Counted from the stretch's first letter, positions 11,171-45,905 are shown. The stretch: DNA of 64,000 nucleotides from Ignavibacteriales bacterium (GCA_037441705.1 JBBIRR010000002.1:32001-96000), one strand, 5' to 3'. Made by a program: numbers and translations. The notes: a model not told the origin generated them from the letters alone.

Positions 11171-11233
11171 TCAGATAAAAAAGTCCTTGACATTCCTCGT
11201 CGGCCGTCGTATATTTAAGACGAAATAGTCTGA
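11171..11233. promoter_or_regulatory. Two putative Rrf2 operators (6-N6-6 imperfect inverted repeats)
   Basis: TCAGAT-N6-GTCCTT (11171-11188) and TAAGAC-N6-GTCTGA (11216-11233); same pattern upstream of the second Rrf2 gene. Confidence 0.55.
11187..11215 (+). promoter_or_regulatory. sigma70-type promoter of the Rrf2/nos operon
   Basis: TTGACA (11187-11192) N17 TATATT (11210-11215). Confidence 0.75.
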
Positions 11234-11238
11234 TTACG

Positions 11239-11721
11239 ATGAGCCTGATTTTCAGTCGCGAGTGCGAGTATGCAATCCAGAGTGTGTTGTATCTCGCGCT
11301 TAAGCGTCGGGATGAGCGGACTTCGATCCGCGAGCTGGCAGGACGCTTGAGCATCCCGTACCACTTTCTCGGGAAGATCCTGCAGCGCCTGACGCGCAAA
11401 GGTCTCCTGGTGTCGTACAAAGGGCCGTTGGGAGGATTTGCTTTGAGCATGCCCCCTGAGGAGATCACGCTCTTTCATATCGTCGAGGCTATTGACGGAA
11501 CGGCGTTCACCAGAATGTGTGTGCTCGGGTTCTCGGAGTGTACGCCGGAACGGCCCTGCTCTGTTCACGAGCACTGGTCGACGTTGCGGGACAACATCTA
11601 TCATATGCTGATCAGAAAGAACATTGCAGACATGGGTCGCGATATGAGAAAGCCCGAGTACCAGCGACTGCCGGCGGTCAAAGCAATTCTTTCCCATCCA
11701 TCACCAACACGAACCACTTGA
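11239..11721 (+). CDS. Rrf2 family transcriptional regulator (Fe-S type)
   Basis: FSRECEYA, wHTH with KGPLGGF wing, C-terminal CVLG..EC....PC.VH. Confidence 0.92.
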   Translation: MSLIFSRECEYAIQSVLYLALKRRDERTSIRELAGRLSIPYHFLGKILQRLTRKGLLVSYKGPLGGFALSMPPEEITLFHIVEAIDGTAFTRMCVLGFSECTPERPCSVHEHWSTLRDNIYHMLIRKNIADMGRDMRKPEYQRLPAVKAILSHPSPTRTT

Positions 11722-11747
11722 ATGTCTTACTACATGGAGATGCACGA

Positions 11748-12326
11748 ATGAAACCAACCGAAGAACTGATCCGTGAACATGACGCCATCCAAACGATGCT
11801 GCGCATTCTGGAGAGCGCGAGCACACGTCTGCTTGCCGGTGAAACGGTAAGCGCCGACGACCTCGGCAACATGATCGAGTTCCTTCGCGTGTTTGCCGAC
11901 CGATGCCATCATGCGAAAGAAGAGACGGTACTCTTTCCTGCCATGGAGGCGGTGGGGATACCGCGCGAACGAGGACCCATTGGGGTGATGTTGTCCGAAC
12001 ATGACGCGGGCCGCAAGCATATTCGCGGGATGGCGGACGCGCTCGACAGCTATAGAAAGGGTGTCGATGGCGCCGCGCGTGAGTTTGTAACGCATGCACG
12101 TCTCTACAGCAATCTTCTCTTCCAGCACATTCAGAAAGAAAATCAGATTCTCTTTCCGATGGCCGATGCGCACATAGCGGAGACGGAACAGGAGCGCATA
12201 GCCCGGGAATTTGCGCGGCTGGAAGCTGAGCAGATCGGCGAAGGAACGCATGAACGCTTTCATGCGCTTCTCGGAGAATTGAAGCAAGCATACCTCTCGA
12301 CTGAACTATCACCCGCGAAGGCGTAG
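11748..12326 (+). CDS. Hemerythrin (HHE) domain protein
   Basis: EHDAI, HHAKEE..LFP, EHD.GR and HIQKEN.ILFP motifs. Start MKPTEELIREH after GGAG. Confidence 0.88.
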   Translation: MKPTEELIREHDAIQTMLRILESASTRLLAGETVSADDLGNMIEFLRVFADRCHHAKEETVLFPAMEAVGIPRERGPIGVMLSEHDAGRKHIRGMADALDSYRKGVDGAAREFVTHARLYSNLLFQHIQKENQILFPMADAHIAETEQERIAREFARLEAEQIGEGTHERFHALLGELKQAYLSTELSPAKA

Positions 12327-12328
12327 CC

Positions 12329-13114
12329 GTGCACGCTGTCGCTGACTTCTACGATGCACTTGCATCCGACTATGATCTGATGACGGGCTTCGAGCAGCGC
12401 GTGGTTACTGATCGGCCGTTCTTCCGGTTGCTTGTGGAACGTTACGGCATCAAGCGCGCGGTGGATGCCGGCTGCGGTACGGGGTTTCACAGTTTTTTGC
12501 TCACCCAGCTCGGCGTGGATGTTACGGCGGTGGATGTCTCCGAAGCAATGCTTCGGAAACTCTCTGAACGGGCTGCCGCGCTGAACGTGCAAGTTCATAT
12601 CGTACGAACGGATTTCCGATCGCTTGCTTCTGCACTTCAGCAAAAGTACGATGCAGTCTTCTGTCTCGGGAACACGTTGGCTCACCTCCAATCAGAGGAA
12701 GAACTGCGCGCAGCGTTGACAAATTTCTCCTCTGTAATTGTCCCGGGTGGCTGTTTGTTTCTGCAAGTCGTGAATTTTGAACGCATTCTCGCATCGCGGC
12801 AGCGCATCCAAAGCGTACGGGAGCGCGACGACAAAGTGTTTGTCCGCTTCTATGATTTTGAGCCGACCAAGATTCGCTTCAACATCTTGACCCTGGAACG
12901 GCATGAAGGCTCGCTCAGTCACCGCTTGCAATCCGTTTGCCTCCGTCCCATCCGTTCGAGCGAGCTTGTTGATGTAGTCCAGCGCTGTGGCTTCGAACAG
13001 CCGGCGGTGTTCGGCGGGATCTCGCTGGAGGAGTTTCTTCCCGAGCGTTCTCCCGACATCGTGCTGGTTGCCCGAAAGATGGGGAAAGGTTCCGACACTT
13101 CCACAACAGTGTGA
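12329..13114 (+). CDS. Class I SAM-dependent methyltransferase (glycine/sarcosine N-methyltransferase-like)
   Basis: VDAGCGTG, VDVS..ML and CLGNTLAH motifs. Confidence 0.85.
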   Translation: MHAVADFYDALASDYDLMTGFEQRVVTDRPFFRLLVERYGIKRAVDAGCGTGFHSFLLTQLGVDVTAVDVSEAMLRKLSERAAALNVQVHIVRTDFRSLASALQQKYDAVFCLGNTLAHLQSEEELRAALTNFSSVIVPGGCLFLQVVNFERILASRQRIQSVRERDDKVFVRFYDFEPTKIRFNILTLERHEGSLSHRLQSVCLRPIRSSELVDVVQRCGFEQPAVFGGISLEEFLPERSPDIVLVARKMGKGSDTSTTV

Positions 13115-13119
13115 GGATC

Positions 13120-15021
13120 ATGGCACAGTATTACAAGCCGGTTATTCCCGACATCGAATTCTGGAAGAATCTCGTCCCGTGCCAGATCGGATGCCCGATC
13201 CACACCGATGCGGGGCGATACGTCCAGCTCATTGCCGAGCAGAAGTACAAAGAGGCATACCTCACTGCGCGTTCACCCAATCCCTTTGCAAGTGTCTGCG
13301 GGCGTGTGTGTGCTGCGCCGTGTGAAGATTGGTGCCGCCGGGGGAAGATTGATACGCCGGTCAGCATTCGCGCGCTGAAGCGCTTCGTCACGGAAAAATA
13401 CGGCGTCGAGTCCGTTGTGCCCGATACCCAGGACGAGTTGTTCGAGGGCGGAAACGATCCCGGCAACAAGTGGCTCTGGCACCTGCCTGCACAAGTCGAA
13501 GCGCGCAAGAACGTCGTCAAGAACAAGAAAGTTGCCGTCATCGGGTCGGGGCCTGCGGGCCTTTCGTGCGCGCATGATCTTGCGCTGATGGGCTATCAGG
13601 TGACGGTGTTCGAGGCGACGAACGTTGCCGGCGGTATGCTGCGTCACGGGATTCCCGAGTACCGTCTCTCCCGCAGCCTGATCGATAAGGAAATTGAGAA
13701 GATCAAGTTTTTGGGCGTCGACATCCGGTACAACACGCCGCTGACGCAGTCGTTCGGTCTGAAGGAATTGAAGCGCGAGGGTTTTGAGGCGGTGTTTCTT
13801 TCCGTCGGAACACAAAAGGGCCGCGACCTCAACATCGAGGGAAACTCTCTCGATGGCATCATCAAAGCCATTGATTATCTCCTCAACGTCAACAACGGCT
13901 ATCGCGTCAATCTTGGTAAGAAGGTGTTGGTGATCGGCGGCGGTTTCGTTGCCTTCGATGCCGCCCGTATGGCATTACGCGGCGCGCCGGACGGAGAAGG
14001 CGGGGATATTCACGCGGCGGTGGACGCTGCCCGAACGGCCATTCGAGCAGGCGCGCAGGAAGTGCATATCGCCAGCCTCGAATCGTTCGCCGAAATGCCC
14101 GTGTTACGGACCGCGCAGGGACATGAAGAGTTCGAGGAAGCAAAGCGTGAAGGGATTATCTTCCATCCGCAGCGTGGCCCCCGCCGATTCATCGGCGAGC
14201 AGGGAAGGGTGAAGGCGGTGGAGTTCATCGGCGTGAAGCGGACCTACGATGACGCCGGTCGGTTCAATCCAGAATATGATCCAAGTTACTCCGAGACGTT
14301 CGAGACGGATTCGGTGATTCTCGCGATCGGGCAACAAACGGATCTGTCGTTTCTCAGGCCCGAAGACAACATCGAACTCACGCCCGGCAAGCTCATCAAG
14401 ATTGATCCCGAAACCCTTGCCACGACGGCGCCGGGCGTGTTCGCCGGCGGCGACGTTGCGTTTGGACCGCGCAATATCATCGACGCTGTAGCAAACGGCA
14501 AACGAGCGGCCCTCTCCATTGATGAGTACCTTCGAGGCATCAAGCCGGAGACGTTCTACAATCTCTTGATCGAGAAAATTCCGACACGCCGTTTCACCCG
14601 ACCAGAAGACTACGAGCAGCATGCAAGAGAGGCGCCACCCTCCATTGACCTGAACCGCCGCACAGGAATCTCCGAAGTCGAAATCGGCTACACAGATCAG
14701 CAGGCACGCACGCAGGCCGAACGGTGCCTCGCCTGCCACATTCAAACGATCTACGACGCGGACAAATGTGTGATGTGCAACCGCTGCGTGGACATCTGCC
14801 CGGAGTACTGCCTGAAGCTGGTTCCGCTTGCCGAGCTGGAGCTTGACGAGCAAACGAAGACACAACTCCTGAACCACTACAACCTCGATCCGTTCCAGCA
14901 TGCTTCGGCGATGCTCAAGGACGACGAAACGTGCATTCGGTGTGGCCTCTGTGCACTGCGTTGCCCGACCGACGCGATGACAATGGAAGTCTTTTATTAC
15001 GAACAGAAAGAAGTAGCGTGA
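13120..15021 (+). CDS. FAD/NAD(P)-dependent iron-sulfur oxidoreductase (GltD/NfnB/DsrL-like) with C-terminal 2x[4Fe-4S] ferredoxin domain
   Basis: CQIGCP, CGRVCAAPCEDWC, GSGPAG, GIPEYRL, GGGFVAFD, FAGGD, RCLAC, CVMCNRCVDICP, CIRCGLCALRCP. Confidence 0.88.
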   Translation: MAQYYKPVIPDIEFWKNLVPCQIGCPIHTDAGRYVQLIAEQKYKEAYLTARSPNPFASVCGRVCAAPCEDWCRRGKIDTPVSIRALKRFVTEKYGVESVVPDTQDELFEGGNDPGNKWLWHLPAQVEARKNVVKNKKVAVIGSGPAGLSCAHDLALMGYQVTVFEATNVAGGMLRHGIPEYRLSRSLIDKEIEKIKFLGVDIRYNTPLTQSFGLKELKREGFEAVFLSVGTQKGRDLNIEGNSLDGIIKAIDYLLNVNNGYRVNLGKKVLVIGGGFVAFDAARMALRGAPDGEGGDIHAAVDAARTAIRAGAQEVHIASLESFAEMPVLRTAQGHEEFEEAKREGIIFHPQRGPRRFIGEQGRVKAVEFIGVKRTYDDAGRFNPEYDPSYSETFETDSVILAIGQQTDLSFLRPEDNIELTPGKLIKIDPETLATTAPGVFAGGDVAFGPRNIIDAVANGKRAALSIDEYLRGIKPETFYNLLIEKIPTRRFTRPEDYEQHAREAPPSIDLNRRTGISEVEIGYTDQQARTQAERCLACHIQTIYDADKCVMCNRCVDICPEYCLKLVPLAELELDEQTKTQLLNHYNLDPFQHASAMLKDDETCIRCGLCALRCPTDAMTMEVFYYEQKEVA

Positions 15022-15058
15022 TGGTATCTCATGGAAACAGAACACACGGAGTCTGTTT

Positions 15059-15607
15059 ATGAAATTCTTCAAGAAGTCGAACGGAAAAGCTGAACCGGAA
15101 GCGCGTCCGGCAGATACAGGCCGTCGGTCGTTTCTTGAAAAGCTCGGCTTTGGAAGTTTGATCGCCGGGCTGGCGGGATTTGGCCTGCAGTCGTTCCGGT
15201 CGCTTATTCCCAACGTGTTGTATGAGCCGCCGATGAAATTCAAGGTTGGTCATCCGTCAACGCTGGCAGACGGCGTGACGTTTCTGGAAGACAAGCGGCT
15301 GTATCTTTTCAAAGAAGGAAAGTCGTTCTACGCGATCTCGGCAGCGTGCACACATCTCGGCTGTACCGTCAAGTACACCAAACTCAATCAGCCGAAACAA
15401 GTTGAGATAGATGGAGAAAAGAAAACCGTCCCGTTCGAATTTCACTGCCCGTGCCACGGCTCGAAGTTCTATTCGGACGGAACGAACTACGCGGGGCCTG
15501 CACCGAAACCGTTGCACTGGTACCGACTGGAAGTCGCTCCCGATGATGGCCAGTTGGTCGTGAACATGAGCGATGAAGTGGAGAGAAGTTTCCGATTGAC
15601 CGTTTGA
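15059..15607 (+). CDS. Rieske [2Fe-2S] subunit of a Rieske/cytochrome b complex
   Basis: Tat motif GRRSFL; CTHLGC and CPCHGS; GPAPKPL. Confidence 0.93.
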   Translation: MKFFKKSNGKAEPEARPADTGRRSFLEKLGFGSLIAGLAGFGLQSFRSLIPNVLYEPPMKFKVGHPSTLADGVTFLEDKRLYLFKEGKSFYAISAACTHLGCTVKYTKLNQPKQVEIDGEKKTVPFEFHCPCHGSKFYSDGTNYAGPAPKPLHWYRLEVAPDDGQLVVNMSDEVERSFRLTV

Positions 15608-15637
15608 TGTGCAGTTACTTAAACGAAGGAACACACA

Positions 15638-16963
15638 ATGCAAATTGCTGAAGCGACAAAGCGAGTCTCCAACAAGCTTCTCTGGCCGTGGAAACCTTCC
15701 AGCGACAAAGAAGCCGGCGACGCGATCGTTAAGAACTTGCTCCTGCACTGGTTCCCGAACAAGGTGACGAAAGGAAGCCTGTCGTGGACCTATTCCTTCT
15801 ACCTTGGAACGATCTCGTTTGTTCTGTTCGTGATTCTCTCGCTCACGGGCGTCGTGCTCATGTTTCTTTACGTGCCGTCGGTGGAGCGCGCATACAGTTC
15901 GGTAAAGGACATCGAGTACGTGGTGTCCTTTGGCTGGTTGTTGCGGGGTATGCACCGCATCGCGGCACATCTGATGGTGGCGGTGGTTTTCCTGCACATG
16001 GTGCGTGTGTTTCTGACCGGCGCCTACAAGAACGGAAGCGCCGTCGGCGCGAACAGACCGCTCAACTGGATCATCGGCCTTGTGCTGCTCCTGGCGACGC
16101 TCCTTCTGTCCTTCACCGGCTACTTGCTGCCGTGGGATCAGTTAGCGTACTGGGCAATCACCGTCGGGACGAACATTGCCAGCGCCGCTCCGATCGTTGG
16201 CGAGTGGATTCGCTTCCTCCTACTCGGCGGCAATACCATTGATCAGGGAGCGCTGATTCGCTTTTATGTGCTGCACGTGTTCTTTCTTCCTGTGCTGGTT
16301 GTGTTTCTCTTCTCGTGGCACATGTGGCGTGTGAGGAAGGACGGTGGGCTCGCCATTGTTGATCACGAAGTCCTGACGCAGAAAGCGGAGAAGGCAGCCC
16401 CGGTGAAGTCGAAAACCTATTCACTTCTCGGCATCACCAACGGTACGACGGTGCATGTACAAAACACGATGGTGGACGAGGAAAAGAACTCCGTGCCCTC
16501 GACGCCCCATCTTACGCGACGCATCGGGCTTGTGAGTGCTGCAACGCTGGTTGTCGTTGTGCTGCTCACGCTCGTCTTTCGCGCGCCGCTCGAAGCTCCG
16601 GCAAACCCGGCGGTGACACCCAATCCGGCGAAAGCGCCGTGGTACTTCCTCTGGCTTCAGGAGATCGTCACGATTACGACGGTGAAGATCGGTTCGTTCA
16701 CCATCAACGGCGCGTTGATTGGCGGCATTCTTCTGCCGGGCGTGCTGTTCGTGCTTGCCGCATGGTGGCCGTATCGCGACAGGTCGAGCGTCAACAACGT
16801 CGGCGTGTGGTTTGCTGCTGAGCGCAAGCGACAGAATATGGTGTTCCTCGCTATCTGTCTGTTCGTCATTCTCTTCACCATCATCGGGACGTATTTGCGA
16901 GGGCCGTATTGGAACTTCTACTGGCCATGGGAAACGTGGCCCGAGATGCCGGTAAAATTCTGA
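15638..16963 (+). CDS. Cytochrome b (b6 plus subunit IV fused) of a Rieske/cytb complex
   Basis: Heme ligands in RGMH...FLH and VLH...SWH; TGYLLPWDQ; PAKAPWYF. Confidence 0.92.
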   Translation: MQIAEATKRVSNKLLWPWKPSSDKEAGDAIVKNLLLHWFPNKVTKGSLSWTYSFYLGTISFVLFVILSLTGVVLMFLYVPSVERAYSSVKDIEYVVSFGWLLRGMHRIAAHLMVAVVFLHMVRVFLTGAYKNGSAVGANRPLNWIIGLVLLLATLLLSFTGYLLPWDQLAYWAITVGTNIASAAPIVGEWIRFLLLGGNTIDQGALIRFYVLHVFFLPVLVVFLFSWHMWRVRKDGGLAIVDHEVLTQKAEKAAPVKSKTYSLLGITNGTTVHVQNTMVDEEKNSVPSTPHLTRRIGLVSAATLVVVVLLTLVFRAPLEAPANPAVTPNPAKAPWYFLWLQEIVTITTVKIGSFTINGALIGGILLPGVLFVLAAWWPYRDRSSVNNVGVWFAAERKRQNMVFLAICLFVILFTIIGTYLRGPYWNFYWPWETWPEMPVKF

Positions 16964-16983
16964 GAGGAGGAATGATGGAAGCG

Positions 16984-17546
16984 TTAGTGGACAACGAGTT
17001 GCTTCCTGGGGCCGTCGAGTGTGAACTTCAACCGATTGAGAATATCCAGACCGAGGTAGGCTGTGTCAGTCTCCGGGGCAACGCCTTCGATGTTTTCGAA
17101 GATCCACCCGTTGAGCTTGAGGTGAACAACATGGGCTTTGTAAAGCATTGTACGACCATCATCATCTGCGACGAGGACCTCGCTGAAAGCTCTCGTGCCC
17201 AGGTGTGGGATAAGAGTGCCGGAACGATCGACATATCGGCGCCAGTATCCACTCTGAATTTCACGCGGCGCTTGCGCCCGTGTATTGGAGAAATGATGTC
17301 GATAGGAAGAATTGGAGCCGGGCGGGTCGTGCGGGAGTAACCGTATTCTCGAAACATGCGATTCAGCAGTCCCGAACGGGTAGCGTCAACGCCGATTACC
17401 TGCTCGTTGTGGATCGCAATGTATTTGTCCCTGTACTTCCGTAGGAACTCTGCCTTATGCTGATGATAGTACCGACGGTTCCGTTCGGCAAGACGTTGAG
17501 CAGCTCGGTCCTGCATGCGGCGATTCCGTTTCGTTGTGGTCGGCAT
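16984..17546 (-). pseudogene. Decayed DUF5678-like / retropepsin-like aspartyl protease gene pair
   Basis: N-part FLRKYRDKYIAIHNEQVIGVD (DUF5678-like) runs into PAPIL...VDTGADMSIVP. After a frameshift near 17213 another frame reads ...AYLGLDILNRLKFTLDGPRKQLVVH* (stop 16984-16986). Confidence 0.7.
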
Positions 17547-17610
17547 TGGTTCCTCGTCCTGTCCGCTTGAGAAAAACTATGTAATCTGAATCCAACTTGC
17601 AAGGATAGCC

Positions 17611-18840
17611 ATGGATCACAAATCAGTCAACGACAAACTCACGTTCGTGAAGCAGGACAGACTGCTGCTCAGCCTCGTGGGCATCGCCGTGTTTGTGCTG
17701 ATGGGCTTCGTCACCTACAACTACCTTACGCCGGCATGGCAAGATTATCAGGCGGAGTTCCGGGATTTGGTGGAGGAAAAGTTCGGGCCTGATCGTGCAG
17801 CGACTGTGCCGCGAGGGTTGCAGCAAGTGTATGTGAAGGAGTTGAACAGGATTGATCGCTGCGTCACCTGCCATCAGGGCGTGGAGTGGAAAGGGTTGGA
17901 GAATGCCCCTGAGCCGTTTCGCACTCATCGCAAAGAAATTCTGGAAAAGCATCCCATTGAAAAATTTGGATGCACGACGTGTCACGGCGGCCAGGGGTAT
18001 GCAACGGAGAGGCGTGATGCACACGGGTTGATCAAGGATTGGGAGGAGCCGCTGTTAGGTCGGGAGTTGGGGGAGTTTTATGTTATGAGCAACAAAAAGG
18101 CCCTCATGCAGATGAACTGCAACACCTGCCATCGGTACGACAAGTACACGAAAGGCGCGGAGTATATCAATCGCGCGAAGGAGTTGGTAACGCAGAAGGG
18201 ATGCCGCGCCTGCCATGTTATCAACGGACGTGGCGGCACGGTTGGGCCGGACCTGACATACGAAGGAATGAAGGCGCCCGAACAATTCAATTACGAGCGC
18301 ATCAAAGGCTTCCTTTCGGAATTCAGCTGGCAGGTGGCCCATCTGAAAAACCCGAAGGAACTTGTCCCGGAAACCGTCATGCCCAACTTCAATTTCTCCA
18401 GCGCGGATGCGCAGGCGCTCGCGATGTTGGTCATGAGCTGGAAGAAGGAACACATCCCCGTCGAGTACATCCCCGGCCACAACTTCCGGGACATCCCAAC
18501 GCCGGAGGAGAAGGAGAAAGAAGAACGGATGCTGAAGGGGCCGGGAGCCTTCTTCGTGAAAAAGAATTGCTTCGTGTGCCATTCCGTTTCGACTCTGGGC
18601 ATTGATGCCGCTGCGCAGATTGGCCCGGACCTCGCGCTCGCCGTCGAGGATGTGCAGTCGCGCTTCGGTCGTACACTCGACGATTTCCTGGCGAAGCCCA
18701 CGGGGACGATGGAGGTGGTCCTCTCGACGATGATTACCCTCACCCCCGAAGAACGCGCGGAAGCGATCAGCAAACTGCGGCATGCCTATGAGTTGTATCA
18801 GACACAGAAGAAAGAGCAACAGGTGGCCAAAGGGAAGTGA
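17611..18840 (+). CDS. Membrane-anchored pentaheme cytochrome c
   Basis: N-terminal TM; CVTCH, CTTCH, CNTCH, CRACH, CFVCH. Confidence 0.9.
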   Translation: MDHKSVNDKLTFVKQDRLLLSLVGIAVFVLMGFVTYNYLTPAWQDYQAEFRDLVEEKFGPDRAATVPRGLQQVYVKELNRIDRCVTCHQGVEWKGLENAPEPFRTHRKEILEKHPIEKFGCTTCHGGQGYATERRDAHGLIKDWEEPLLGRELGEFYVMSNKKALMQMNCNTCHRYDKYTKGAEYINRAKELVTQKGCRACHVINGRGGTVGPDLTYEGMKAPEQFNYERIKGFLSEFSWQVAHLKNPKELVPETVMPNFNFSSADAQALAMLVMSWKKEHIPVEYIPGHNFRDIPTPEEKEKEERMLKGPGAFFVKKNCFVCHSVSTLGIDAAAQIGPDLALAVEDVQSRFGRTLDDFLAKPTGTMEVVLSTMITLTPEERAEAISKLRHAYELYQTQKKEQQVAKGK

Positions 18841-18928
18841 CATTCATAGATCACTATAACACCTACAATAAACCCCGGAGACACACAGACCGGGATCAAC
18901 CAACATAACACAGAAGGAGTCAACAACA

Positions 18929-20827
18929 ATGAAACGCACAGCTCTGGCGCTCGGAGTCGTTGCCGTGATCGCGGCAATGCTCATCGGATGCGGCGAAGAG
19001 AAGAAAGGCCGGGGGAACGGCGCTCGGTCGGATGTGCAGGAGGCCGCATTGAAGACCTACGTGGCGCCCGGCGATTTGGACAAGTACTATCTGTTCAAGT
19101 CGGGCGGGCACTCGGGTCAGGTGTATATTTATGGCGTCCCGTCTATGCGCCATATTGCGACCATTCCGGTTTTCACCCCGTACCCCGCGACGGGATATGG
19201 TTTCGATAAGGAGTCGAAGGAGATGTTGGGCGGCTACACGTGGGGCGACGCGCACCATCCGTCGCTGAGCGAAACCGACGGCAACTACGACGGCCGCTGG
19301 TTGTTCATCTCCGACAATGCCAACAACCGCATGGCACGCATTGACCTGCGCGAGTTCAAGACCAAGCAAATTCTTGGTCCTATCCCGAACGTGTCGGGCA
19401 ACCACTGCTCGTCCTTCGTGACGGAAAATACCGAGTACGTGCTTGCAGGTTCACGCTTCTCGATCCCTCTGCCGAAAGGAACGTATGCGAGCATACAGGA
19501 CTATGCGACGAAGTACAAGGGCGTCGTTGCCGGGATCGCTGTTGATCCGAAAACGGGCACGATGTCCTTAGGGTGGCAGGTGTTGATGCCGCCGTTCAAT
19601 TACGACCTGGGCGATGCCGGAAAGGGTCCCAGCAAGGAGTGGGGATTCTGGACATGCTACAACAGCGAGCGCGCCACGGGCAAGTTGGAAGTGACGTCGG
19701 CGCAGAAAGATCGTGACTATGTTGCCGCAGTCAATTGGGTTGCTGCCGAACGCGCCATCAAGGAAGGGAAGTTCAAGATGATCGGCGGCGTGAAGGTGAT
19801 TGATCCGAAAGATGTCGAGGGAGTCGTCTACCTTCTTCCTGCAGCCAAATCCCCGCACGGTGTTGATGTCAGTCCCGATGGCAAGTACATCGTTGCCAGC
19901 GGCAAGCTGCAGAGCATCACGACCGTCTTCAACATCGAGAAGATGTTGACGGCGATCCAGAAGAAAGACTTCGAGGGCAATGAAGACGGCATCCCGGTGC
20001 TCCGTTACGATGCCGTCAAAGATGCTGAAGTGAACGTCGGTCTCGGGCCGCTGCATACGCAGTTCGACGACAAGGGGAACGCGTACACCTCGTTGTTTGT
20101 CGAGAGTGCCGTTGCCAAGTGGAAGCTCGGCACATGGGAAGTGGTGGACAAGGTTCCCGTTTCCTACAATATCGGCCACCTGACGGCCTCCGAAGGCGAC
20201 ACGAAGAACCCCACGGGCGAGTATCTGGTTGCTCTCAACAAACTTTCGCACGGGCGTCATCTCAGCGTCGGGCCGTCGCAGCCGGAATCGTCGCAACTGA
20301 TTGACATCAGCGGTGAGAAGATGAACCTGCTGTACGATGCGTTCACCGAACCCGAACCTCACTACGCGCAGATGATCAAAGCCGACAAGCTGAAGCCGAT
20401 TGAAGTGTATCCCAAAGAAGAGAACAAGCATCCCAAAGCCATCTGGGATGTGAAGGACGCGAAGGTCACGCGCAGCGGAAAGAATGTCGAAGTGCTGATG
20501 GTCGCAGTCCGTTCAACACTTGAACCGACCGCGATCGAGGTGAACAAAGGCGACAAGGTGACCATCTATCTTACCAACATCGAACAGACAACGGACGAGC
20601 TGCACGGCTTCGGTCTCAACGAGTACAACATCAATGTCGTCGTTGACCCGGGCGAGACGAAGACGATCGAGTTCGTTGCCGACAAGGCTGGTGTGTTCCC
20701 GTACTATTGCACGAACTTCTGCTCGGCGCTGCATCAAGAAATGCAGGGCTATCTGTTGGTCAAGGGAGGTTCCGGTGTTGCATCAGCGAGCAAAACGCAA
20801 CATGGAAAGGCGTTAGCCAGAAACTGA
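18929..20827 (+). CDS. nosZ: Nitrous oxide reductase, clade II (Sec/lipoprotein signal)
   Basis: Lipobox LIG-C and no Tat motif; SGGHSGQ, DAHH, GNH, PHG, PLH, GH, EPH CuZ histidines; CuA CTNFCSALHQEM. Confidence 0.97.
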   Translation: MKRTALALGVVAVIAAMLIGCGEEKKGRGNGARSDVQEAALKTYVAPGDLDKYYLFKSGGHSGQVYIYGVPSMRHIATIPVFTPYPATGYGFDKESKEMLGGYTWGDAHHPSLSETDGNYDGRWLFISDNANNRMARIDLREFKTKQILGPIPNVSGNHCSSFVTENTEYVLAGSRFSIPLPKGTYASIQDYATKYKGVVAGIAVDPKTGTMSLGWQVLMPPFNYDLGDAGKGPSKEWGFWTCYNSERATGKLEVTSAQKDRDYVAAVNWVAAERAIKEGKFKMIGGVKVIDPKDVEGVVYLLPAAKSPHGVDVSPDGKYIVASGKLQSITTVFNIEKMLTAIQKKDFEGNEDGIPVLRYDAVKDAEVNVGLGPLHTQFDDKGNAYTSLFVESAVAKWKLGTWEVVDKVPVSYNIGHLTASEGDTKNPTGEYLVALNKLSHGRHLSVGPSQPESSQLIDISGEKMNLLYDAFTEPEPHYAQMIKADKLKPIEVYPKEENKHPKAIWDVKDAKVTRSGKNVEVLMVAVRSTLEPTAIEVNKGDKVTIYLTNIEQTTDELHGFGLNEYNINVVVDPGETKTIEFVADKAGVFPYYCTNFCSALHQEMQGYLLVKGGSGVASASKTQHGKALARN

Positions 20828-20869
20828 CGTCGTGCGTGTTACCCTGTGTTTGTTGAATCATACCCTCAC

Positions 20870-20899
20870 CCGAATCCCTCCGGCAGCGGAGGGATTCGG
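20870..20899 (+). other. Perfect 13-bp stem-loop after nosZ, no U-tract
   Basis: CCGAATCCCTCCG-GCAG-CGGAGGGATTCGG. Confidence 0.75.
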
Positions 20900-20926
20900 T
20901 GCGGGCGGTGAAAGGAAGGAAGCGTA

Positions 20927-21565
20927 ATGCAAAATCTCATAACGAAAGCAACGGCGTTCTTCGATACGCCGATTGATTTGCGCAGCCGCGTGCTGGTGCT
21001 GGTGGGTGCGTTGATTCTGTTGCCGACATTCTTCTACCCGCTCTGGACCATGACGCTCTACTCCAATCAGTTTCCGGACGGATTGGTGCTGAAGATTTAT
21101 TCGCACAAGCTGGAAGGCGGCAAGACGCCAAACCGCGATGACCTGAAAGAAATCAACGCGCTCAACCACTACATCGGCATGAAGCCGCTGAAGGAGGAAG
21201 ACTTCACCGAGTTCAAGTGGATTCCGTTCGTGATTGGGGGCGTGATGCTTCTCGCGCTGCGCGTGGTGGTGATGGGAAAGATGTCGTACCTGGTGGATCT
21301 GTTCGTCCTCTTCACGTACTTTGGACTGTTTTCGCTCTGGAGTTTCTATCACAAGCTGTACCTGTACGGCCACGACCTTGACCCGACTGCGGCGGTACGA
21401 GTGCCGCCCTTCACGCCTCCGATGTTCGGCCATTCCACGATGGCAAACTTCGAAGTGTACAGCTTTCCAGCGGCCGGTTCTTACTGTATGGCTTTGATGC
21501 CGTTGTTCCTGCTTGCTGCGATGTGGCTGTCGCGTCAGACGTGGCTGAAACAGAAGCGTTATTGA
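20927..21565 (+). CDS. nosB: NosB membrane protein (clade II nos accessory)
   Basis: PLW..FPDGL, INALNHYIGM and LYLYGHDLDP motifs; directly after nosZ. Confidence 0.85.
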   Translation: MQNLITKATAFFDTPIDLRSRVLVLVGALILLPTFFYPLWTMTLYSNQFPDGLVLKIYSHKLEGGKTPNRDDLKEINALNHYIGMKPLKEEDFTEFKWIPFVIGGVMLLALRVVVMGKMSYLVDLFVLFTYFGLFSLWSFYHKLYLYGHDLDPTAAVRVPPFTPPMFGHSTMANFEVYSFPAAGSYCMALMPLFLLAAMWLSRQTWLKQKRY

Positions 21566-21590
21566 ACAAGTCCTGCGTAATGTGGTGGTG

Positions 21591-22394
21591 ATGAGCATGA
21601 AACCGATCATACCTAAAGAGCATGGCGGTTGGGCTGTATTGTATGTGCCGATGCTTGTCGGTGCGGCAATTGCCGGCGAGGTAACGCTCGACGTGTTGTT
21701 GCTTGCCCTGTCCGGGTTGGGGATGTTTTTGAGCTACGCGCCCGTGCACATGATTCTCCGGCACCGGTATGTGCTGCCGCTTCCGAAGGATAAACTCAAG
21801 CAGGCGGTGCTCTGGAGTATTGTGTATCTGGGTTTCGGCATTGCGTTCATGGTTCCGCTGCTTCTGCGCGGGTACTGGCTCCTTCCCGTCATCGGCATTC
21901 CCGGGCTTGGAGCATTTTTCGGCAACTTCTTACTGACGCGGCGCGTGTCGAAAACCATTCCGAGCGACCTCGTTGCGGTGTTTGGTCTCTCGCTCGGTGC
22001 AGTATGTTCCCACTACGTCGTGACGGGTCGCATCACCGAGGAAGCGGTTATCGTCTGGTTGCTGAACCTGCTCTTCTTCTGGTGCAGCGTGTTCTACGTT
22101 CACATGAAGATTCGTGCGGCCTCCCACAAGGAGCCGGTCATTGCAATGTCGGAGCGCCTGTCGCTGGGGTCGCTGAACATTCTCTATCACATTGTGGTGG
22201 TAGCAATTGTCGTGGGATTGGCATTCTATCGCATGACGAGGTTGTACGTTGTGCTTGCGTTTGTGCCCATGCTGCTGCACGCACTGTATGGAACGTACAA
22301 GCTCTCACACAGGGTGAAATTTCAGCGGCTGGGACTTCTGCTGTTAGCGCAGTCTGTGCTGTTCGGTCTTGTGCTCTGGAGGGTGTGGGAATGA
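21591..22394 (+). CDS. YwiC-like membrane protein
   Basis: N-terminal IPKEHGGWA motif; about 8 TM helices. Confidence 0.75.
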   Translation: MSMKPIIPKEHGGWAVLYVPMLVGAAIAGEVTLDVLLLALSGLGMFLSYAPVHMILRHRYVLPLPKDKLKQAVLWSIVYLGFGIAFMVPLLLRGYWLLPVIGIPGLGAFFGNFLLTRRVSKTIPSDLVAVFGLSLGAVCSHYVVTGRITEEAVIVWLLNLLFFWCSVFYVHMKIRAASHKEPVIAMSERLSLGSLNILYHIVVVAIVVGLAFYRMTRLYVVLAFVPMLLHALYGTYKLSHRVKFQRLGLLLLAQSVLFGLVLWRVWE

Positions 22395-23788
22395 ACGCAA
22401 AGACAACACTCTTGCTTGTCGTGTTTTGGTGCGGAATCGGTTCTCATGCCAGTCCGGCCTCTGAGAAGACCGGAGGGCGCGTCGAACCATCTGCATCTCT
22501 GCAAACGGCGGTTGATGCAGCGGCGCCGGGCGACACGCTGGTGATACAGCCGGGGACGTATGAGGGCAACATCATTCTGCGCAAGCGCCTGGTGCTGATC
22601 GGAACGCAGGCTCCAATTCTTCGAGGCGAGGGGAAAGGGAGCGTCGTTACGATCGAGGCCGACTCCTGCGTCGTGCGTGGATTCGTGGTGGAACGCTCAG
22701 GCTCCATGTTGGTGAATGAAGATGCTGGCATTCTCATCAAATCTTCTCATAATCTGATTGAGAGGAATTCGCTCCGCGATGTGTTGTTTGGCGTCTATCT
22801 GCTTCACGCTCACCACAACACTATTCGAGATAATGACATTGCCGGCAGGCGTCAACTTGATGTCGGCCAGCGCGGCGCCGGAATCCACGTCTGGAATTCT
22901 CTGCACAATCGGTTTGTCGGAAATGTCGTTACGGACACGCGGGACGGCTTCTACATCCAGAACGCCAACCACTCCCGCATCGAGCGCAACCGATGCTACA
23001 ACGTGCGCTACGGGCTGCACTACATGTATGCCGACTCGAATGTGTTCCTGCACAACACGTTCCACGATAATGTTGCCGGCGCGGCGATCATGTACTCCCG
23101 CGGCATTGTCATGCGCCACAACGTCTTCTCGCACAACCGGGGTTTCTCGTCGTTCGGCATTCTCTTTCAGGATTGTCATGATCTGATTGCTGACTCGAAC
23201 GTCATTACCGACAACGTCGTTGGGATGTTCTTTGAAGCATCAACGGACAACGTGTTCCGTCACAACGTGATTGCTCAGAACGATCTCGCGCTGCAGATGT
23301 TCCAGAACTCGATCAACAACATCTTCAGCGAGAATGTTCTTGTCGATAATCTCAGTCCGCTCGCCATTGTCGGGAAGCGAACCGAATCCCGCTGGAGCGT
23401 TGACGGCCGCGGCAACTACTGGAGTTCGTACGACGGGTACGATCTCGATGGCGACGGCATCGGCGATGTGCCGATGAGAATTCAGAATGTGTTTCATTAC
23501 CTCGAAGGGCAGAACGCCAACGTGCGTCTGTATTTGTACAGTCCCGCCTCGCAGGCCCTTGCTGCAGCGGCAAAAGCATTCCCCATCCTCATGATCAATG
23601 AAGAGGCGGACGAGCATCCGTTGATGCAGCCGTTTGACGCAGGAGCGCTTCCGGCCGTTCAGATGCTGCGCGCGATGCATTCGTCGAGGGACAGCGGAGA
23701 GCTCAGCAAGGGGTGGGTGGCATGGCCGCTCATGGGCCTGCTGGTCCTGGGGTTTCTCTATCATCGCATTGGAAGGAGATCCGCATGA
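22391..23788 (+). CDS. nosD: Nitrous oxide reductase maturation protein NosD
   Basis: Beta-helix repeats, RYGLHYMY, GNYWSSYDGYDLDGDGIGD. Start MNAKTT overlaps the ywiC stop. Confidence 0.93.
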   Translation: MNAKTTLLLVVFWCGIGSHASPASEKTGGRVEPSASLQTAVDAAAPGDTLVIQPGTYEGNIILRKRLVLIGTQAPILRGEGKGSVVTIEADSCVVRGFVVERSGSMLVNEDAGILIKSSHNLIERNSLRDVLFGVYLLHAHHNTIRDNDIAGRRQLDVGQRGAGIHVWNSLHNRFVGNVVTDTRDGFYIQNANHSRIERNRCYNVRYGLHYMYADSNVFLHNTFHDNVAGAAIMYSRGIVMRHNVFSHNRGFSSFGILFQDCHDLIADSNVITDNVVGMFFEASTDNVFRHNVIAQNDLALQMFQNSINNIFSENVLVDNLSPLAIVGKRTESRWSVDGRGNYWSSYDGYDLDGDGIGDVPMRIQNVFHYLEGQNANVRLYLYSPASQALAAAAKAFPILMINEEADEHPLMQPFDAGALPAVQMLRAMHSSRDSGELSKGWVAWPLMGLLVLGFLYHRIGRRSA

Positions 23789-24507
23789 TACAGGTGGAAC
23801 ATCTTATCAAGAAGTTTGGCAAATTCACGGCCGTGAATGACGTTTCATTCATCGTCAAGGAAGGAGAGGTGTTTGCCTTTTTGGGCCCGAACGGAAGCGG
23901 CAAGACGACGACGATGAAATCTCTCGTGGGGCTGAACGTGCCGACTTCAGGACGGATATTGATCAACAATGTCGATGTGCAGCGCTATCCGAAACAGACG
24001 AGGCAGTTCATGAGCTACCTTCCGCAGCGCGTGGTGTTTCCGGAGAACCAATCGGCGCGGGAGGTGATGCGCTTCTACTGTCGGTTACGCAAGCTGCCGC
24101 TCGCGCGGGCCGATGAGGCCCTCGAGCGTGCGGGCTTCAACGGCTTCGCCGACAAACCCGTCAGCGAGTTTTCGGGCGGGATGATTCAGCGTCTCGGTCT
24201 CGCCGTCGTCGCCCTGCCCGATGCGCCGATCCTGCTGCTCGACGAGCCGACCGCCAACCTCGACCCGCAAGGCGTGAAGCGCTTCCGGGAATTCATTCTT
24301 CACCAAAAAGAAAACGGCAAGACCATCATCTTCTCGACCCATCTGCTGCAAGAAGCCGAGCAGCTCGCCGACCGTGTCGGGATCTTTGTCGGCGGAAGAA
24401 TGGTCGCGGAAGAATCCATTGAGACCCTTCACAGGACGTATCTCGCAAGCAGAACAATGGAAGACATGTATTTACACTACGTGGGAGAACACACCGATGA
24501 ACGCTAA
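23785..24507 (+). CDS. nosF: ABC ATPase NosF
   Basis: GPNGSGKTT, FSGGMIQR, LLDEP; between nosD and nosL/nosY. Confidence 0.88.
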   Translation: MIQVEHLIKKFGKFTAVNDVSFIVKEGEVFAFLGPNGSGKTTTMKSLVGLNVPTSGRILINNVDVQRYPKQTRQFMSYLPQRVVFPENQSAREVMRFYCRLRKLPLARADEALERAGFNGFADKPVSEFSGGMIQRLGLAVVALPDAPILLLDEPTANLDPQGVKRFREFILHQKENGKTIIFSTHLLQEAEQLADRVGIFVGGRMVAEESIETLHRTYLASRTMEDMYLHYVGEHTDER

Positions 24508-24952
24508 CACTGTATCACGCCGTCCTCACCTTCTCGGGCCGACACTCCTCGCCTTTATGCTTCTCGGATGCGGCGCGTCGAAGATCGAACCGGTTGAAAT
24601 TTTCCCCGAGGATAATTGTGCCCAATGCCGCATGGCGGTGTCGGAGGTGCAGTTCGCATCGGAGATCATTGACATGCACGGGGAGGTGTACAAGTTCGAC
24701 GACCTTGGATGCATGCTGAAGTTCCGGAACAAGCGCAGCGATCTCAAGATCAACGCGACATTCTTGAAAGACTATGAGACAAAGGAATGGATTCCGTACG
24801 AGCGGGCTGTGATCGTAAAGACAAGCATCGAGACACCCATGGGTTCCGGCAAGGTGGCCTTCGCCGACCAAGCACGAGCAAAAGCTATCCAAAGCCGTCA
24901 CCCGGCTTCCGAGCAACATGCCGATGGGTGTTCGCACGCATGCTGTCAGTAA
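24497..24952 (+). CDS. nosL: Copper chaperone lipoprotein NosL
   Basis: Lipobox LLG-C; CAQCRM, KFDDLGC, TPMGSG. Confidence 0.9.
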   Translation: MNANTVSRRPHLLGPTLLAFMLLGCGASKIEPVEIFPEDNCAQCRMAVSEVQFASEIIDMHGEVYKFDDLGCMLKFRNKRSDLKINATFLKDYETKEWIPYERAVIVKTSIETPMGSGKVAFADQARAKAIQSRHPASEQHADGCSHACCQ

Positions 24953-25012
24953 CGTTCGGCGACGCCTCGCTGCAGTATTTACTCGACAATTAAGGTTGGA
25001 AGGAGTTGAACT

Positions 25013-25843
25013 GTGGACTTCAAAGCGATCTTCGACATAGCACGACAGGAGCTGGTCATCAACATCCGCAACAAATGGACGATGATCTTTGCGGTGGTGT
25101 TTGGCGTGTTGGTCGTGAGCATCTCGTACTTTGGCATCATGGCCGAGGGCTTTTCCGGGATGCAAAACTTCACCCGAACCTCGGCGAGCTTGCTGAATCT
25201 GGTGTTGTACATCGTGCCGCTGGTTGCGCTTACCATGGGGACTCTGAGCTTTACCGGCGACAAAGGATCCACGGAACTTCTGTTTTCTCAGCCTCTGTTC
25301 CGCAGTGAGATTCTTCTTGGAAAACTTGTCGGCGTGTTCTTCTCCATTGCGCTTTCGACGCTTATCGGCTTCACGCTGGCGGGAGGTGTGGTGATTGCCG
25401 CCAACGGCGGGGAAGGCCTCTCGCGCTATGTGGCGTTCGTGGTTCTGTCGCTGGCACTCTCGTTCGTCTTTCTGAGCATTGCCGTCCTGTCCTCCACACT
25501 CAGCCGACGGAAGTCCAAAGCCTTCGGCCTTGCGTTGTTTCTCTGGTTCTTTTTTGTCCTTTTCTACGATCTGCTTGCGCTGGGCGGCGTGCTGATGTTG
25601 AAGGGGAAGGCGGCGAACACGTTCCTCTTTCTCTCTCTCTTCGGCAATCCGGTGGATATGGTACGAGTGGCAACGCTGATCATTCTGGACAACGTAACAA
25701 TTTTTGGTGCCGCAGGCGCGGCGATGCTGAGATTCCTCGGCGGTCAGACGGCGAGCCTGCTTCTCTTAGTGGTCGGACTCGCTGTTTGGGGAAGCATCCC
25801 GCTTCTGATCGCCGTGCGGTTGATGCGGCGACAGGATATTTGA
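25013..25843 (+). CDS. nosY: ABC permease NosY
   Basis: ELLFSQPL.R..ILLGK, YDL and NPVD..R motifs; 6 TMs. Confidence 0.88.
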   Translation: MDFKAIFDIARQELVINIRNKWTMIFAVVFGVLVVSISYFGIMAEGFSGMQNFTRTSASLLNLVLYIVPLVALTMGTLSFTGDKGSTELLFSQPLFRSEILLGKLVGVFFSIALSTLIGFTLAGGVVIAANGGEGLSRYVAFVVLSLALSFVFLSIAVLSSTLSRRKSKAFGLALFLWFFFVLFYDLLALGGVLMLKGKAANTFLFLSLFGNPVDMVRVATLIILDNVTIFGAAGAAMLRFLGGQTASLLLLVVGLAVWGSIPLLIAVRLMRRQDI

Positions 25844-27087: not shown

Positions 27088-27161
27088 GCGGCCGTAGCTC
27101 AACTGGATAGAGCATCAGCCTACGAAGCTGAGGGTTAGGGGTTCGACTCCCTTCGGCCGCA
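27088..27161 (+). tRNA. tRNA-Arg(ACG)
   Basis: GCGGCCG/CGGCCGC acceptor stem; TCAGC-CTACGAA-GCTGA anticodon arm; GTTCGA; CCA not encoded. Confidence 0.96.
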
Positions 27162-45530: not shown

Positions 45531-45905
45531 ATGATAAAGTCCACATCCGCATTGTATGTCAATTCTGTCAGGAACGTAGTGGTGGCGCTGATGCTGGCCA
45601 GCGCCACGGCCTCTGCGCAGGATGCCGTCTCGGACTTCCGTACCAACTGCATGAGCTGTCATACCATCGGCGGCGGAAGATTGACAGGCCATGACTTGAA
45701 GAACGTGACGCAGCGAAGAGACAAAGCCTGGCTGACGCAATTCATGGTCGACCCGAAGGCGATGATAGATGGAGGCGACCCGTATGCCGTCGAGTTGGTA
45801 CGGGTGGCGCGCGGTGTGGTGATGCCCACGCTGCCGGGTATGACCAAAGCGCGCGCCGAAGCGTTGCTTGCGCTCATCGAGGAATCAACGGACGATTACG
45901 AATGA
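45531..45905 (+). CDS. Cytochrome c (one CxxCH), possibly C-terminally truncated
   Basis: Signal peptide ASA-Q; CMSCH, TIGGGRL.G.DL, VMP; ends abruptly and overlaps the actB start. Confidence 0.75.
   Translation: MIKSTSALYVNSVRNVVVALMLASATASAQDAVSDFRTNCMSCHTIGGGRLTGHDLKNVTQRRDKAWLTQFMVDPKAMIDGGDPYAVELVRVARGVVMPTLPGMTKARAEALLALIEESTDDYE

Follow-up and report, generated by a model that had tools for sequence, protein, structure and literature searches.

The window analysed here is a stretch of 64,000 nucleotides from the genome of an Ignavibacteriales bacterium (GCA_037441705.1, JBBIRR010000002.1:32001-96000; G000:C2:32001-96000). It hosts a clade II cluster for nitrous oxide (N2O) reduction, in which nosZ is preceded by genes for a flavoprotein, a Rieske protein, a cytochrome b and a pentahaem cytochrome c. 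These belong to a single string of plus-strand genes spanning positions 11239–25843, arranged in the order rrf2, hemerythrin, methyltransferase, flavoprotein, Rieske, cytochrome b, pentahaem cytochrome c, nosZ, a gene in the nosB position, ywiC, nosD, nosF, nosL, nosY. Intergenic gaps measure 5–99 bp throughout, with the sole exception of 647 bp ahead of the cytochrome c gene. An initial annotation of this DNA had listed the five genes from the flavoprotein to nosZ, and each lies on the plus strand where it had been placed. The same annotation had them joined directly to nosZ; the genes are consecutive, but the 647 bp gap, which hosts an antisense insert, interrupts the series before the cytochrome c gene.

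The flavoprotein (13120–15021, 633 aa, cytoplasmic) matches Pyr_redox_2 and Fer4_20 and features an NfnA/GltD fold, with flavin adenine dinucleotide (FAD) and Fe-S sites. The Rieske [2Fe-2S] protein (15059–15607; PF00355) carries the boxes CTHLGC and CPCHGSKF and a twin-arginine-like anchor. Cytochrome b (15638–16963) is a fusion of cytochrome b6 and subunit IV, with haem ligands H106, H120, H213 and H228 and the motif APWY at the quinol-oxidising (Qo) site. The membrane-anchored cytochrome c (17611–18840; PF00034, PF14522) contains exactly five CxxCH motifs, laid out, as read from the sequence, as three clustered haems followed by two class I-like domains, and is likely the electron wire from the Rieske protein to NosZ. 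NosZ (18929–20827) scores 918 bits with TIGR04246 (cut-off 625; E 1.5e-276). It features the CuA cysteines C594 and C598, a cysteine (C21) in what reads as a lipobox-like context and no CxxCH, hence no C-terminal haem domain. A Sec-type NosZ above the TIGR04246 cut-off, accompanied by nosDFYL, marks the locus as a clade II nos cluster.

The absence of nosR, nosG, nosH and nosC had also been proposed. For nosG/napG no match was found in the genome. The NosR and NapH models match only two polyferredoxins on other contigs, far below cut-off (84.8 bits against 213 for the NapH-like protein). One of the two is a 370-aa NapH-like protein residing beside an rrf2 paralogue on contig C23, and a protein of this kind is found upstream of the flavoprotein in some relatives. 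For nosC the statement holds in a narrower form: no separate small cytochrome c gene is seen in the cluster, nosC not having been searched as a family. Overall, none of the Wolinella-type nosG, nosH and nosC genes occurs in the cluster. The genome encodes nuoF and futalosine-pathway genes, and no RnfC scores above cut-off in it. No dsr genes were found among the window ORFs (open reading frames) examined, a genome-wide dsrAB search not having been made. Among relatives with a name, the closest is an Ignavibacteriaceae genome at 78–79% identity.

Flavoprotein and Rieske/cytochrome b subunits

The flavoprotein is made by a GltD/NfnA core and by an extra C-terminal ferredoxin domain for two clusters, which features two CxxCxxCxxxCP motifs. 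The AlphaFold2 model, built from 87 input sequences, is confident (predicted local distance difference test, pLDDT, 90.6; predicted template modelling score, pTM, 0.90); a run with 27 sequences (pLDDT 59.9) was discarded. Best fold matches are with NfnA of NfnABC (9bov_A, Z 36.8, root mean square deviation 6.0 Å over 501 residues), and NfnL follows (5jfc_L, Z 30.8, 2.2 Å over 401 residues). The best sequence match is also to NfnA, of the Bfu family (E 3.6e-81). The protein had been described as DsrL/NfnB-like, but NfnA of Bfu enzymes, which does not bifurcate, is a closer match than NfnB or DsrL. The core formed by the FAD/NAD(P) domains (NAD, nicotinamide adenine dinucleotide) and 2x[4Fe-4S] is common to NfnA (9bov, 9n5u, 8oh5) and NfnL/NfnB (5jca, 4ylf). 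Compared with Nfn enzymes, BfuB/C, NfnS and the YRR motif are missing, and the C-terminal ferredoxin domain replaces the NuoG-like part.

The four-part domain order with a C-terminal ferredoxin is that of DsrL. DsrL-1, the NAD(H) partner of reverse DsrAB, shares the N-terminal clusters, the FAD/NAD domains, the linker and the C-terminal 2x[4Fe-4S] (PMC7596348). In contrast to DsrL-1, the window protein has no dsr context, its partner is a membrane complex, and two N-terminal positions of the distal cluster are missing, C21 and C25 being the only cysteines ahead of C64, C68 and C72. A CxxC reported in the initial annotation as a linker is present at C536/C539, within an RCLxC motif (535–539) invariant in the aligned flavoproteins. 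Rather than forming a linker, the two cysteines most likely supply the two missing distal-cluster ligands. Since C536 and C539 would thus complete the N-terminal cluster domain, the flavoprotein is predicted to carry four Fe-S clusters, as in the models of the Kuenenia proteins.

The fourth ligand of the proximal cluster is Lys87, conserved in 92/92 aligned flavoproteins. Lysine marks this position in the non-bifurcating FAD domain of NfnA, as opposed to glutamate in bifurcating NfnL (PMC12018979). The motif SLES, already noticed in the initial annotation, occupies residues 319–322, where PfNfnL has YRR; in DsrL-1, replacement of YRR by S/T-x-x goes with the use of NAD(H) (PMC7596348). Because of Lys87 and of SLE in place of YRR, flavoproteins of the nosZ-linked branch likely use NAD(H), not NADP, and feature a plain hydride-transfer flavin. 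R182, equivalent to Arg201, is kept, as it is also in non-bifurcating NfnA. As for NfnSL, the protein has SLE and not YRR, K87 and not glutamate, and no gene for an NfnS-type small subunit resides in the cluster. Flavin bifurcation is not expected. The branch is also marked by a GNxxxxHLP insert (residues 112–124), by GGGF (276) and by an EMPVLR[TS]xQG insert (325–334); GGGFV is found in 120/120 of the closest database relatives of P0008. Orthologues in Anaeromyxobacter are named in databases as FAD-dependent oxidoreductase, glutamate synthase beta-like or 4Fe-4S ferredoxin protein. Stand-alone flavoproteins of the family occur in three genomes (L159, L160, L161), and the frames of L159 and L161 begin with a rubredoxin-like CxxC...CPxC segment.

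A relation to anammox complexes, suggested in the initial annotation, is borne out by the Rieske protein, whose best PDB matches are the two Kuenenia proteins Kuste4569 and Kustd1480 (9rk4, E 1e-20; 9rk3, E 2.4e-19), and by the conservation of the modelled interface residues. The Kuenenia complexes Kuste4569-4574 and Kustd1480-1485 (subfamily G according to Dibrova et al.; APWY clade according to Kao and Hunte) combine a Rieske protein, a b6-type cytochrome b, subunit IV, a multihaem cytochrome c and an NAD(P) flavoprotein. With the window complex they share the lysine at the proximal cluster, the APWY motif and the residues corresponding to H37/R233 and R555/R614 at the modelled haem site. 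Identity to the two modules of genome G344, identified by published residue numbers, is about 35% for the flavoprotein, 48% for cytochrome b and 37% for the Rieske protein. Differences are several. Cytochrome b and subunit IV are split in Kuenenia and fused here; Kuenenia retains the haem cN cysteine (CxGG), the glutamate and the nearby histidine, all lost in the window branch; the G344 flavoproteins have YRR, the window protein SLE, so that NAD rather than NADP is the likely substrate; the Kuenenia partner is HAO-like, whereas the window module has five haems, NosZ as partner and a non-anammox host. From its sequence, the complex is best placed among Rieske/cytochrome b complexes of the anammox (APWY) type, as their NosZ-linked branch; it is a variant and not the Kuenenia type itself. 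Genes for oxidoreductases beside subfamily G cytochromes b were reported in many genomes by Dibrova et al. in 2017 (PMC5600118).

In the AlphaFold3 model of the Kuenenia complexes an extra b haem is bound across the cytochrome b dimer by His43 or His62, with propionates near Arg247 or Arg266/Lys267 and near flavoprotein Arg511 or Arg550 (PMC12954380). In the window proteins, His43/Arg247 and His62/Arg266 map to H37 and R233 of cytochrome b, Arg511 and Arg550 to R555 and R614 of the flavoprotein. In the Brocadiales cytochromes b to which this numbering applies, the histidine opens the HxHP motif and stands 18 residues ahead of the cysteine of CxGG. R555 and R614 are each kept in 29/30 flavoproteins of the nos branch, and R555 is found in merely 1 of the 62 flavoproteins outside it. 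H37 was tried as a marker of the partnership and rejected, being kept in 16 of 18 complexes not linked to a flavoprotein.

The Qo side looks intact, with the cd1 region, APWY (at 333), the Rieske boxes and the disulfide cysteines all present. Potentials of +303 and +335 mV have been measured for the Kuenenia Rieske proteins by Hauser et al. in 2025, the latter in the protein with a Ser/Phe signature (PMC12954380). The signature is Ser/Phe in the window, which is of the mid-to-high-potential type as defined in PMC4122944, and Ser/Phe or Ser/Tyr in 31/31 members of the nos branch. The opposite side has changed. Three residues are each missing in 33/33 nos-branch cytochromes b: the cN cysteine (replaced by tyrosine or tryptophan), the glutamate that opens helix E, and the later of the two histidines of HxHP. 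The window protein features YLGT at the cysteine site, and no glutamate. Among flavoprotein-linked sister cytochromes b, the histidine is kept in 58/66, the cysteine in 9/66 and the glutamate in 53/65 by script and 62 by eye, the script having misaligned 9 of its 12 misses (only L122, L136 and L145 lack it by eye). Quinone-reduction (Qi) residues of the bc1 type were not seen either: Arg233 lies five residues past the last haem histidine, and no acid marks the start of helix E. The NosZ branch thus appears, from these alignments, to have removed the quinone-reduction site of the cN side. According to Hauser et al., preventing quinone reduction at this side is the larger problem for NAD(P)+ reduction (PMC12954380).

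Distribution and co-inheritance of the module

The gene arrangement is far beyond chance, and the block is inherited as a unit across several phyla. In a sample of 61 genomes (the window genome and 60 relatives), some flavoprotein match is present in 40, and 38 regions surrounding such matches were retrieved. In 18 regions at 74–92% identity, nosZ lies downstream in 11, and the other 7 end at a contig edge; G019 (53–56% identity, two fragments) is also nos-linked. Among the 61 genomes, nosZ is found in 21, a nos-type flavoprotein in 20 and both in 19, the mismatches being G022, G030 and G050. Upstream accessory genes vary, but the order flavoprotein-Rieske-cytochrome b is fixed across relatives. 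The tie between flavoprotein and Rieske/cytochrome b genes proposed in the initial annotation therefore extends to relatives, in which the block is conserved and co-inherited. All figures of this type are counts and not tests, kin not being independent.

In a class-wide sample of 201 genomes, nosZ was identified in 70 and a nos-type flavoprotein in 18, 16 of which reside on the nosZ contig, 2–6 kb off. The Anaeromyxobacteraceae (66 genomes; the family of G258) host the flavoprotein in 17 genomes and nosZ in 16; all 16 nosZ genomes have the flavoprotein, on the same contig and about 3.3 kb apart in 15, and 49 genomes have neither. Orthologues from A. dehalogenans, A. diazotrophicus and Anaeromyxobacter spp. 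Fw109-5 and PSR-1 carry the branch signature. The Anaeromyxobacter-type nos cluster of G262, a genome encoding a protein identical to P0098, has the full gene order with five haems; identity to the window proteins is 59% for the flavoprotein, 58% for cytochrome b, 58% for cytochrome c and 71% for NosZ, and its flavoprotein is identical to a protein which NCBI names from A. dehalogenans. Compared with Anaeromyxobacter, the ywiC, hemerythrin and methyltransferase genes and the recent insert are additions of the window.

A search with cytochrome b yielded at least 600 matches. Among the best 80, 63 loci include a flavoprotein and 11 include nosZ, the latter in Ignavibacteriota, Kryptoniota, Acidobacteriota and Myxococcota. 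Sister modules, counted where a neighbouring redox enzyme was identified, adjoin cbb3 oxidases, Mo-enzymes of the type II dimethyl sulphoxide (DMSO) reductase family or NapA-like, or an HAO-like protein (a Brocadiales locus). In four Acidobacteriota loci the flavoprotein resides behind ccoNO and not beside the Rieske gene, and in three genomes it is found elsewhere. The module is dedicated to NosZ in this branch only. The initial annotation had viewed the complex as dedicated to N2O, which applies to the branch and not to the family, as this serves several acceptors.

In a FastTree phylogeny of 88 rows, nos-type flavoproteins form one branch of 29 (support 100); the partial sequences L065 and L130 were excluded and no DsrL sequence was included, and deep branches are weak and give no basis for ordering events. 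For flavoprotein and cytochrome b (84 loci), the two trees have 30 of 39 strong splits in common, with 2 strong conflicts; flavoprotein and NosZ trees (18 loci) have 4 of 6 in common, with no conflict.

Several other loci feature modules of the family. In L046 (G007:C52), from a relative, the flavoprotein, nosD and nosZ genes are broken up or truncated and no pentahaem gene could be located, as expected if the entire operon is decaying or if the assembly contains errors. Flavoprotein-Rieske-cytochrome b modules mark eight loci of environmental Chlamydiota (L105, L107, L109, L110, L112, L125, L126, L134; Waddliaceae, Parachlamydiaceae), where they include a seven-haem protein of 1000–1350 aa, followed by ccoN/ccoO where the contig allows. 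In L104, L106, L113, L118, L133 and similar loci the module lies ahead of Mo-enzymes, either of the type II DMSO reductase family or NapA-like; these occur in Planctomycetota, Acidobacteriota, Omnitrophota and others. Two more clusters are found in the window genome. L069 (G000:C29:44800-53200) is a second APWY module, made by Rieske, cytochrome b6, subunit IV and octahaem cytochrome c genes directly before an aa3-type oxidase, with no flavoprotein and no cytoplasmic strand in cytochrome b. L070 (G000:C34:24000-38000) is a multihaem cluster (6, 8, 11, 4, 12 and 5 CxxCH) with NrfD, a Rieske protein and a different cytochrome b.

Electron routes and energetics

The reading which best accommodates these data, and to which we give about an even chance, is that menaquinol electrons are bifurcated, one going to N2O and one to NAD+, and that complex I recycles the NADH. 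The Rieske protein, cytochrome b, pentahaem cytochrome c and flavoprotein would form one membrane complex oxidising menaquinol at Qo. The first electron would pass from the Rieske protein to the pentahaem cytochrome c, CuA, CuZ and N2O. The second would move from haem bL to bH and over the predicted dimer haem into the flavoprotein, passing first the ferredoxin clusters and then the two N-terminal ones before it reaches FAD and NAD+; an exit of the low-potential electron through the flavoprotein is proposed because the usual quinone exit appears gone. Complex I would reoxidise NADH, closing the Q-cycle through the cytoplasm. Bifurcation would be quinol-based and take place at Qo, FAD being an ordinary NAD site. 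On a plain count, about 6 charges would be moved per N2O from the menaquinol level, versus 2. Assembly of the complex, the extra haem, the use of NAD over NADP and the direction of flow are all inferred. The initial annotation had also considered a branch to ferredoxin; this, like flavin bifurcation of the NfnB type, is disfavoured by the lysine typical of NfnA, the missing small subunit and the failure to find RnfC.

Energetics were calculated with haem bL placed symmetrically about menaquinone, the potential of which is −74 mV. After a membrane potential of 120–150 mV has been crossed, the margin left for NAD+ reduction is −22 to +73 mV with the high-potential side at +300 to +335 mV. Given these margins, the route would need a Rieske chain that is either of high potential or kept strongly oxidised, a condition that N2O could sustain. 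With established charge stoichiometries, the 6-charge scheme costs about 104 of the 276 kJ/mol available. A. dehalogenans, which carries the module, has been reported to surpass clade I strains in biomass yield on N2O (PMC5902568, citing a 2016 study); the yield fits the mechanism and proves nothing.

Cytochrome b features a cytoplasmic strand, KTYSLL (259–264), at the start of subunit IV. Strands of this type score above threshold in 94/96 flavoprotein-linked and 5/18 unlinked cytochromes b, figures to be read in the light of a (leave-group-out) threshold chosen post hoc, of shorter unlinked segments and of kinship among the sequences. One of the five unlinked positives is cut at the locus start, and three of the other four hold a flavoprotein elsewhere in the genome, as does one of the five genomes tested among the 13 without the strand.

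Besides these limits of the strand comparison, a number of points weigh against bifurcation to NAD+. A Kuste4572-like subunit IV (L199) is flavoprotein-linked and has no cytoplasmic strand, and His37, being present in 16 of 18 complexes with no adjacent flavoprotein, is no mark of the partnership. Loss of haem cN is no proof that the quinone-reduction site is lost. The energetics of NAD+ reduction are marginal, with a deficit for a high-potential side of +260 mV or less and a clear surplus for one of +400 mV. The flavoprotein is dispensable for N2O reduction, since 52 of the 70 nosZ genomes in the class-wide sample have none detectable with the query used, and the first-splitting, nearest sister of the branch (L081, in G259) has no nosZ in the locus or in the genome. 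The high N2O yield is shared by Dechloromonas aromatica (PMC5902568). In Kuenenia itself, production of NAD(P)H is a proposal and the extra haem an AlphaFold3 prediction (PMC12954380). Kao and Hunte take APWY as a mark of complexes running in reverse, and state that no member of the APWY clade had been characterised at the time (PMC4122944); electrons running backwards from the periplasm would be at odds with a terminal sink such as NosZ.

The opposite direction, in which the flavoprotein oxidises NADH and electrons go up the b haems, is the strongest rival, albeit a doubtful one. Electrons could either re-reduce quinone, as in a Q-cycle of the Mitchell type with a dehydrogenase donor, or follow a quinone-independent wire supplying the low-potential electrons which keep CuZ active, a role proposed for NosR and NosGH (for reductant supply by NosR see PMC13685413). 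Such a flow is downhill and makes no particular demand on potentials, surplus NADH is available in what is probably a heterotroph, and a replacement may exist for nosR and nosG, which were not found. The changes peculiar to the nucleotide site of the nos branch (GGGF and the EMPVLR and GNxxxxHLP inserts), as well as a tryptophan replacing glycine just past the Qo motif in 32/33 nos-branch cytochromes b, may be viewed in the same light. However, with the cN residues gone in the whole branch and no bc1-type Qi residues seen, quinone has no evident place to act as a sink; a direct step from bL to the Rieske protein is the short circuit which such complexes are known to avoid; and complex I, encoded in the genome, would be bypassed, forfeiting 4 charges per NADH. 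On the latter ground the input of NADH was rejected for Kuenenia by Hauser et al. (PMC12954380). Both directions had been put forward in the initial annotation; loss of the cN site favours quinol-to-NAD+ flow, and the feeding of NADH is the less favoured of the two.

Alternatively, the complex may run an ordinary Q-cycle, acting mainly as a menaquinol:cytochrome c oxidoreductase whose quinone-reduction site has been remodelled. The bound flavoprotein would then be a valve and do no more than adjust redox balance by trading electrons with the NAD pool, in the manner of FNR bound to cytochrome b6f (for this association see PMC5600118). The cN cysteine is missing also in 57/66 flavoprotein-linked sisters, bc1 complexes reduce quinone with no haem cN, the same genome hosts in L069 an APWY complex operating beside an aa3 oxidase with no flavoprotein, and the marginal energetics would no longer matter. 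Near-obligate co-inheritance is left unexplained by this arrangement, as are the joint loss of three cN-site residues and the gain of R555 in the branch, and we regard it as rather improbable. Least credible is that the flavoprotein is a soluble, co-regulated enzyme, not docked to the complex, and involved in nitrosative stress or in flavin bifurcation with ferredoxin. Its gene comes after those for Rrf2, hemerythrin and methyltransferase, it is detached from the Rieske gene in the Acidobacteriota loci and the three genomes mentioned above, and R330 of the nos branch sits one residue past the position of PfNfnL Arg333, reported to be among the residues determining flavin bifurcation (PMC12921514). 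Yet the accessory genes vary and the flavoprotein-Rieske-cytochrome b series is constant, flavoprotein and cytochrome b trees agree, the interface arginines are conserved, and the Kuenenia subunits are reported to co-migrate (PMC12954380). Lysine in place of glutamate at the proximal cluster, and the failure to find either an NfnS partner in the cluster or RnfC in the genome, argue against bifurcation by a soluble form.

N2O respiration in Wolinella was reportedly traced by Hein et al. in 2017 to NosGH, NosC1/C2, NosB and the housekeeping Rieske/cytochrome bc complex. Wolinella succinogenes resembles the window system in having a menaquinol-fed clade II NosZ with a Rieske/cytochrome b complex involved, and its NosB-type protein may correspond to the membrane protein in the nosB position of the window (PMC11409646, PMC13685413, PMC11539149). 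It differs in having NosGH and NosC1/C2, as NosG, NosH and NosC are missing from the window cluster; moreover, its Rieske/cytochrome bc complex is a housekeeping one, whereas that of the window is private to the operon and comes with a cytoplasmic flavoprotein.

Complexes of this kind have been described in anammox bacteria; what is new is the NosZ-linked variant. Labels of the sort used for genes of such clusters are said to originate with Sanford in 2012. In the figure legend of a 2026 paper, clade II cluster genes are labelled 'Fe-S', 'Rs', 'cyt-b' and 'cyt-c' (PMC13122619). No paper naming the nos-cluster 'Fe-S' gene as an NAD flavoprotein subunit was found in the literature searched, subscription reviews (e.g. 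Hein and Simon 2019) and bioRxiv supplements lying outside its scope. The proposal that anammox bacteria form NAD(P)H by quinol bifurcation stands since about 2011–2013, with no direct test according to two papers (PMC12954380, PMC5600118).

NosZ is the main known biological sink of N2O, and at stake are the electron route to NosZ in clade II reducers with neither NosR nor NosGH, and the higher yield of some of them. In the NosZ branch, an anammox-type machine faces an acceptor of very high potential, and the haem cN site, whose competition was the chief argument against the mechanism, appears to have been removed. We tentatively suggest, as a possibility rather less probable than bifurcation as such, that a widespread branch of N2O reducers swapped the quinone-reduction half of the Q-cycle for NAD+ reduction, so that about three times as much charge is moved below the level of menaquinol. 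If so, each N2O would draw one menaquinol electron pair downhill and lift a second pair to NADH for complex I. This would be a new energy-conserving loop, accounting for the high N2O yield of Anaeromyxobacter, and consumers of a greenhouse gas would conserve more energy per N2O. The anammox NAD(P)H mechanism would become testable in a culturable heterotroph; the presence of the module in culturable Anaeromyxobacter makes both questions accessible in one organism.

Other features of the window

A sigma-70-like promoter (TTGACA-17-TATATT; 11187–11215, plus strand) precedes the whole string. With 11/12 matches it is the best of 7 sites, a number at the level of shuffled sequences (mean 6.9), and stands out by position and score only. 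The Rrf2-family regulator (11239–11721; PF02082, E 2.8e-28), with the C-terminal cysteines C94, C101 and C107, is likely an Fe-S protein sensing NO or O2 and regulating the operon; many relatives and sister modules likewise have an rrf2 gene ahead of the flavoprotein gene. The hemerythrin-domain protein (11751–12326; PF01814, E 2.4e-24) and the S-adenosylmethionine-dependent methyltransferase (12329–13114; PF13649, E 5.1e-19) are variable accessory genes, the former patchy among relatives, the latter found in some relatives only.

The antisense insert (16964–17583, minus strand) measures about 620 bp. It features a DUF5678 frame (PF18929, E 9.8e-5, a weak match below cut-off) running into a retropepsin-like frame (DTGAD), which shifts midway. 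The insert is missing from the closest relative, L031, where the flanks are contiguous, and has no second copy in the genome; it is recent and lies outside the complex. No flanking repeats beyond chance were detected.

Downstream of nosZ, the membrane protein in the nosB position (20927–21565, plus strand) is named by position, as it follows nosZ in nos loci; it has no Pfam or NCBIfam match, and its atlas neighbours are unnamed clusters. The YwiC-like gene, nosD, nosF, nosL and nosY (21582–25843, plus strand; PF14256, TIGR04247, PF00005, PF05573, PF12679) serve copper delivery and maturation. A scan for terminators gave 26 sites against 17.6 ± 4.9 in shuffled sequences, none convincing between genes, and no match at 1e-80 was found in the plasmid collection.

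A candidate alternative complex III in the window was rejected, as the region 45902–48826 is a single ActB-like/ActD fusion gene. It encodes a protein of 974 aa with an ActB-like molybdopterin/Fe-S region and a partial ActD domain, and resides behind a third rrf2 paralogue. The gene with an FGE-sulfatase domain which follows nosY (25860–26991) is split into two overlapping frames; it is intact in L031 (415 aa) and occurs downstream of nosY in several relatives. A tRNA gene, the sole Rfam match, lies after the nos region at 27088–27161.

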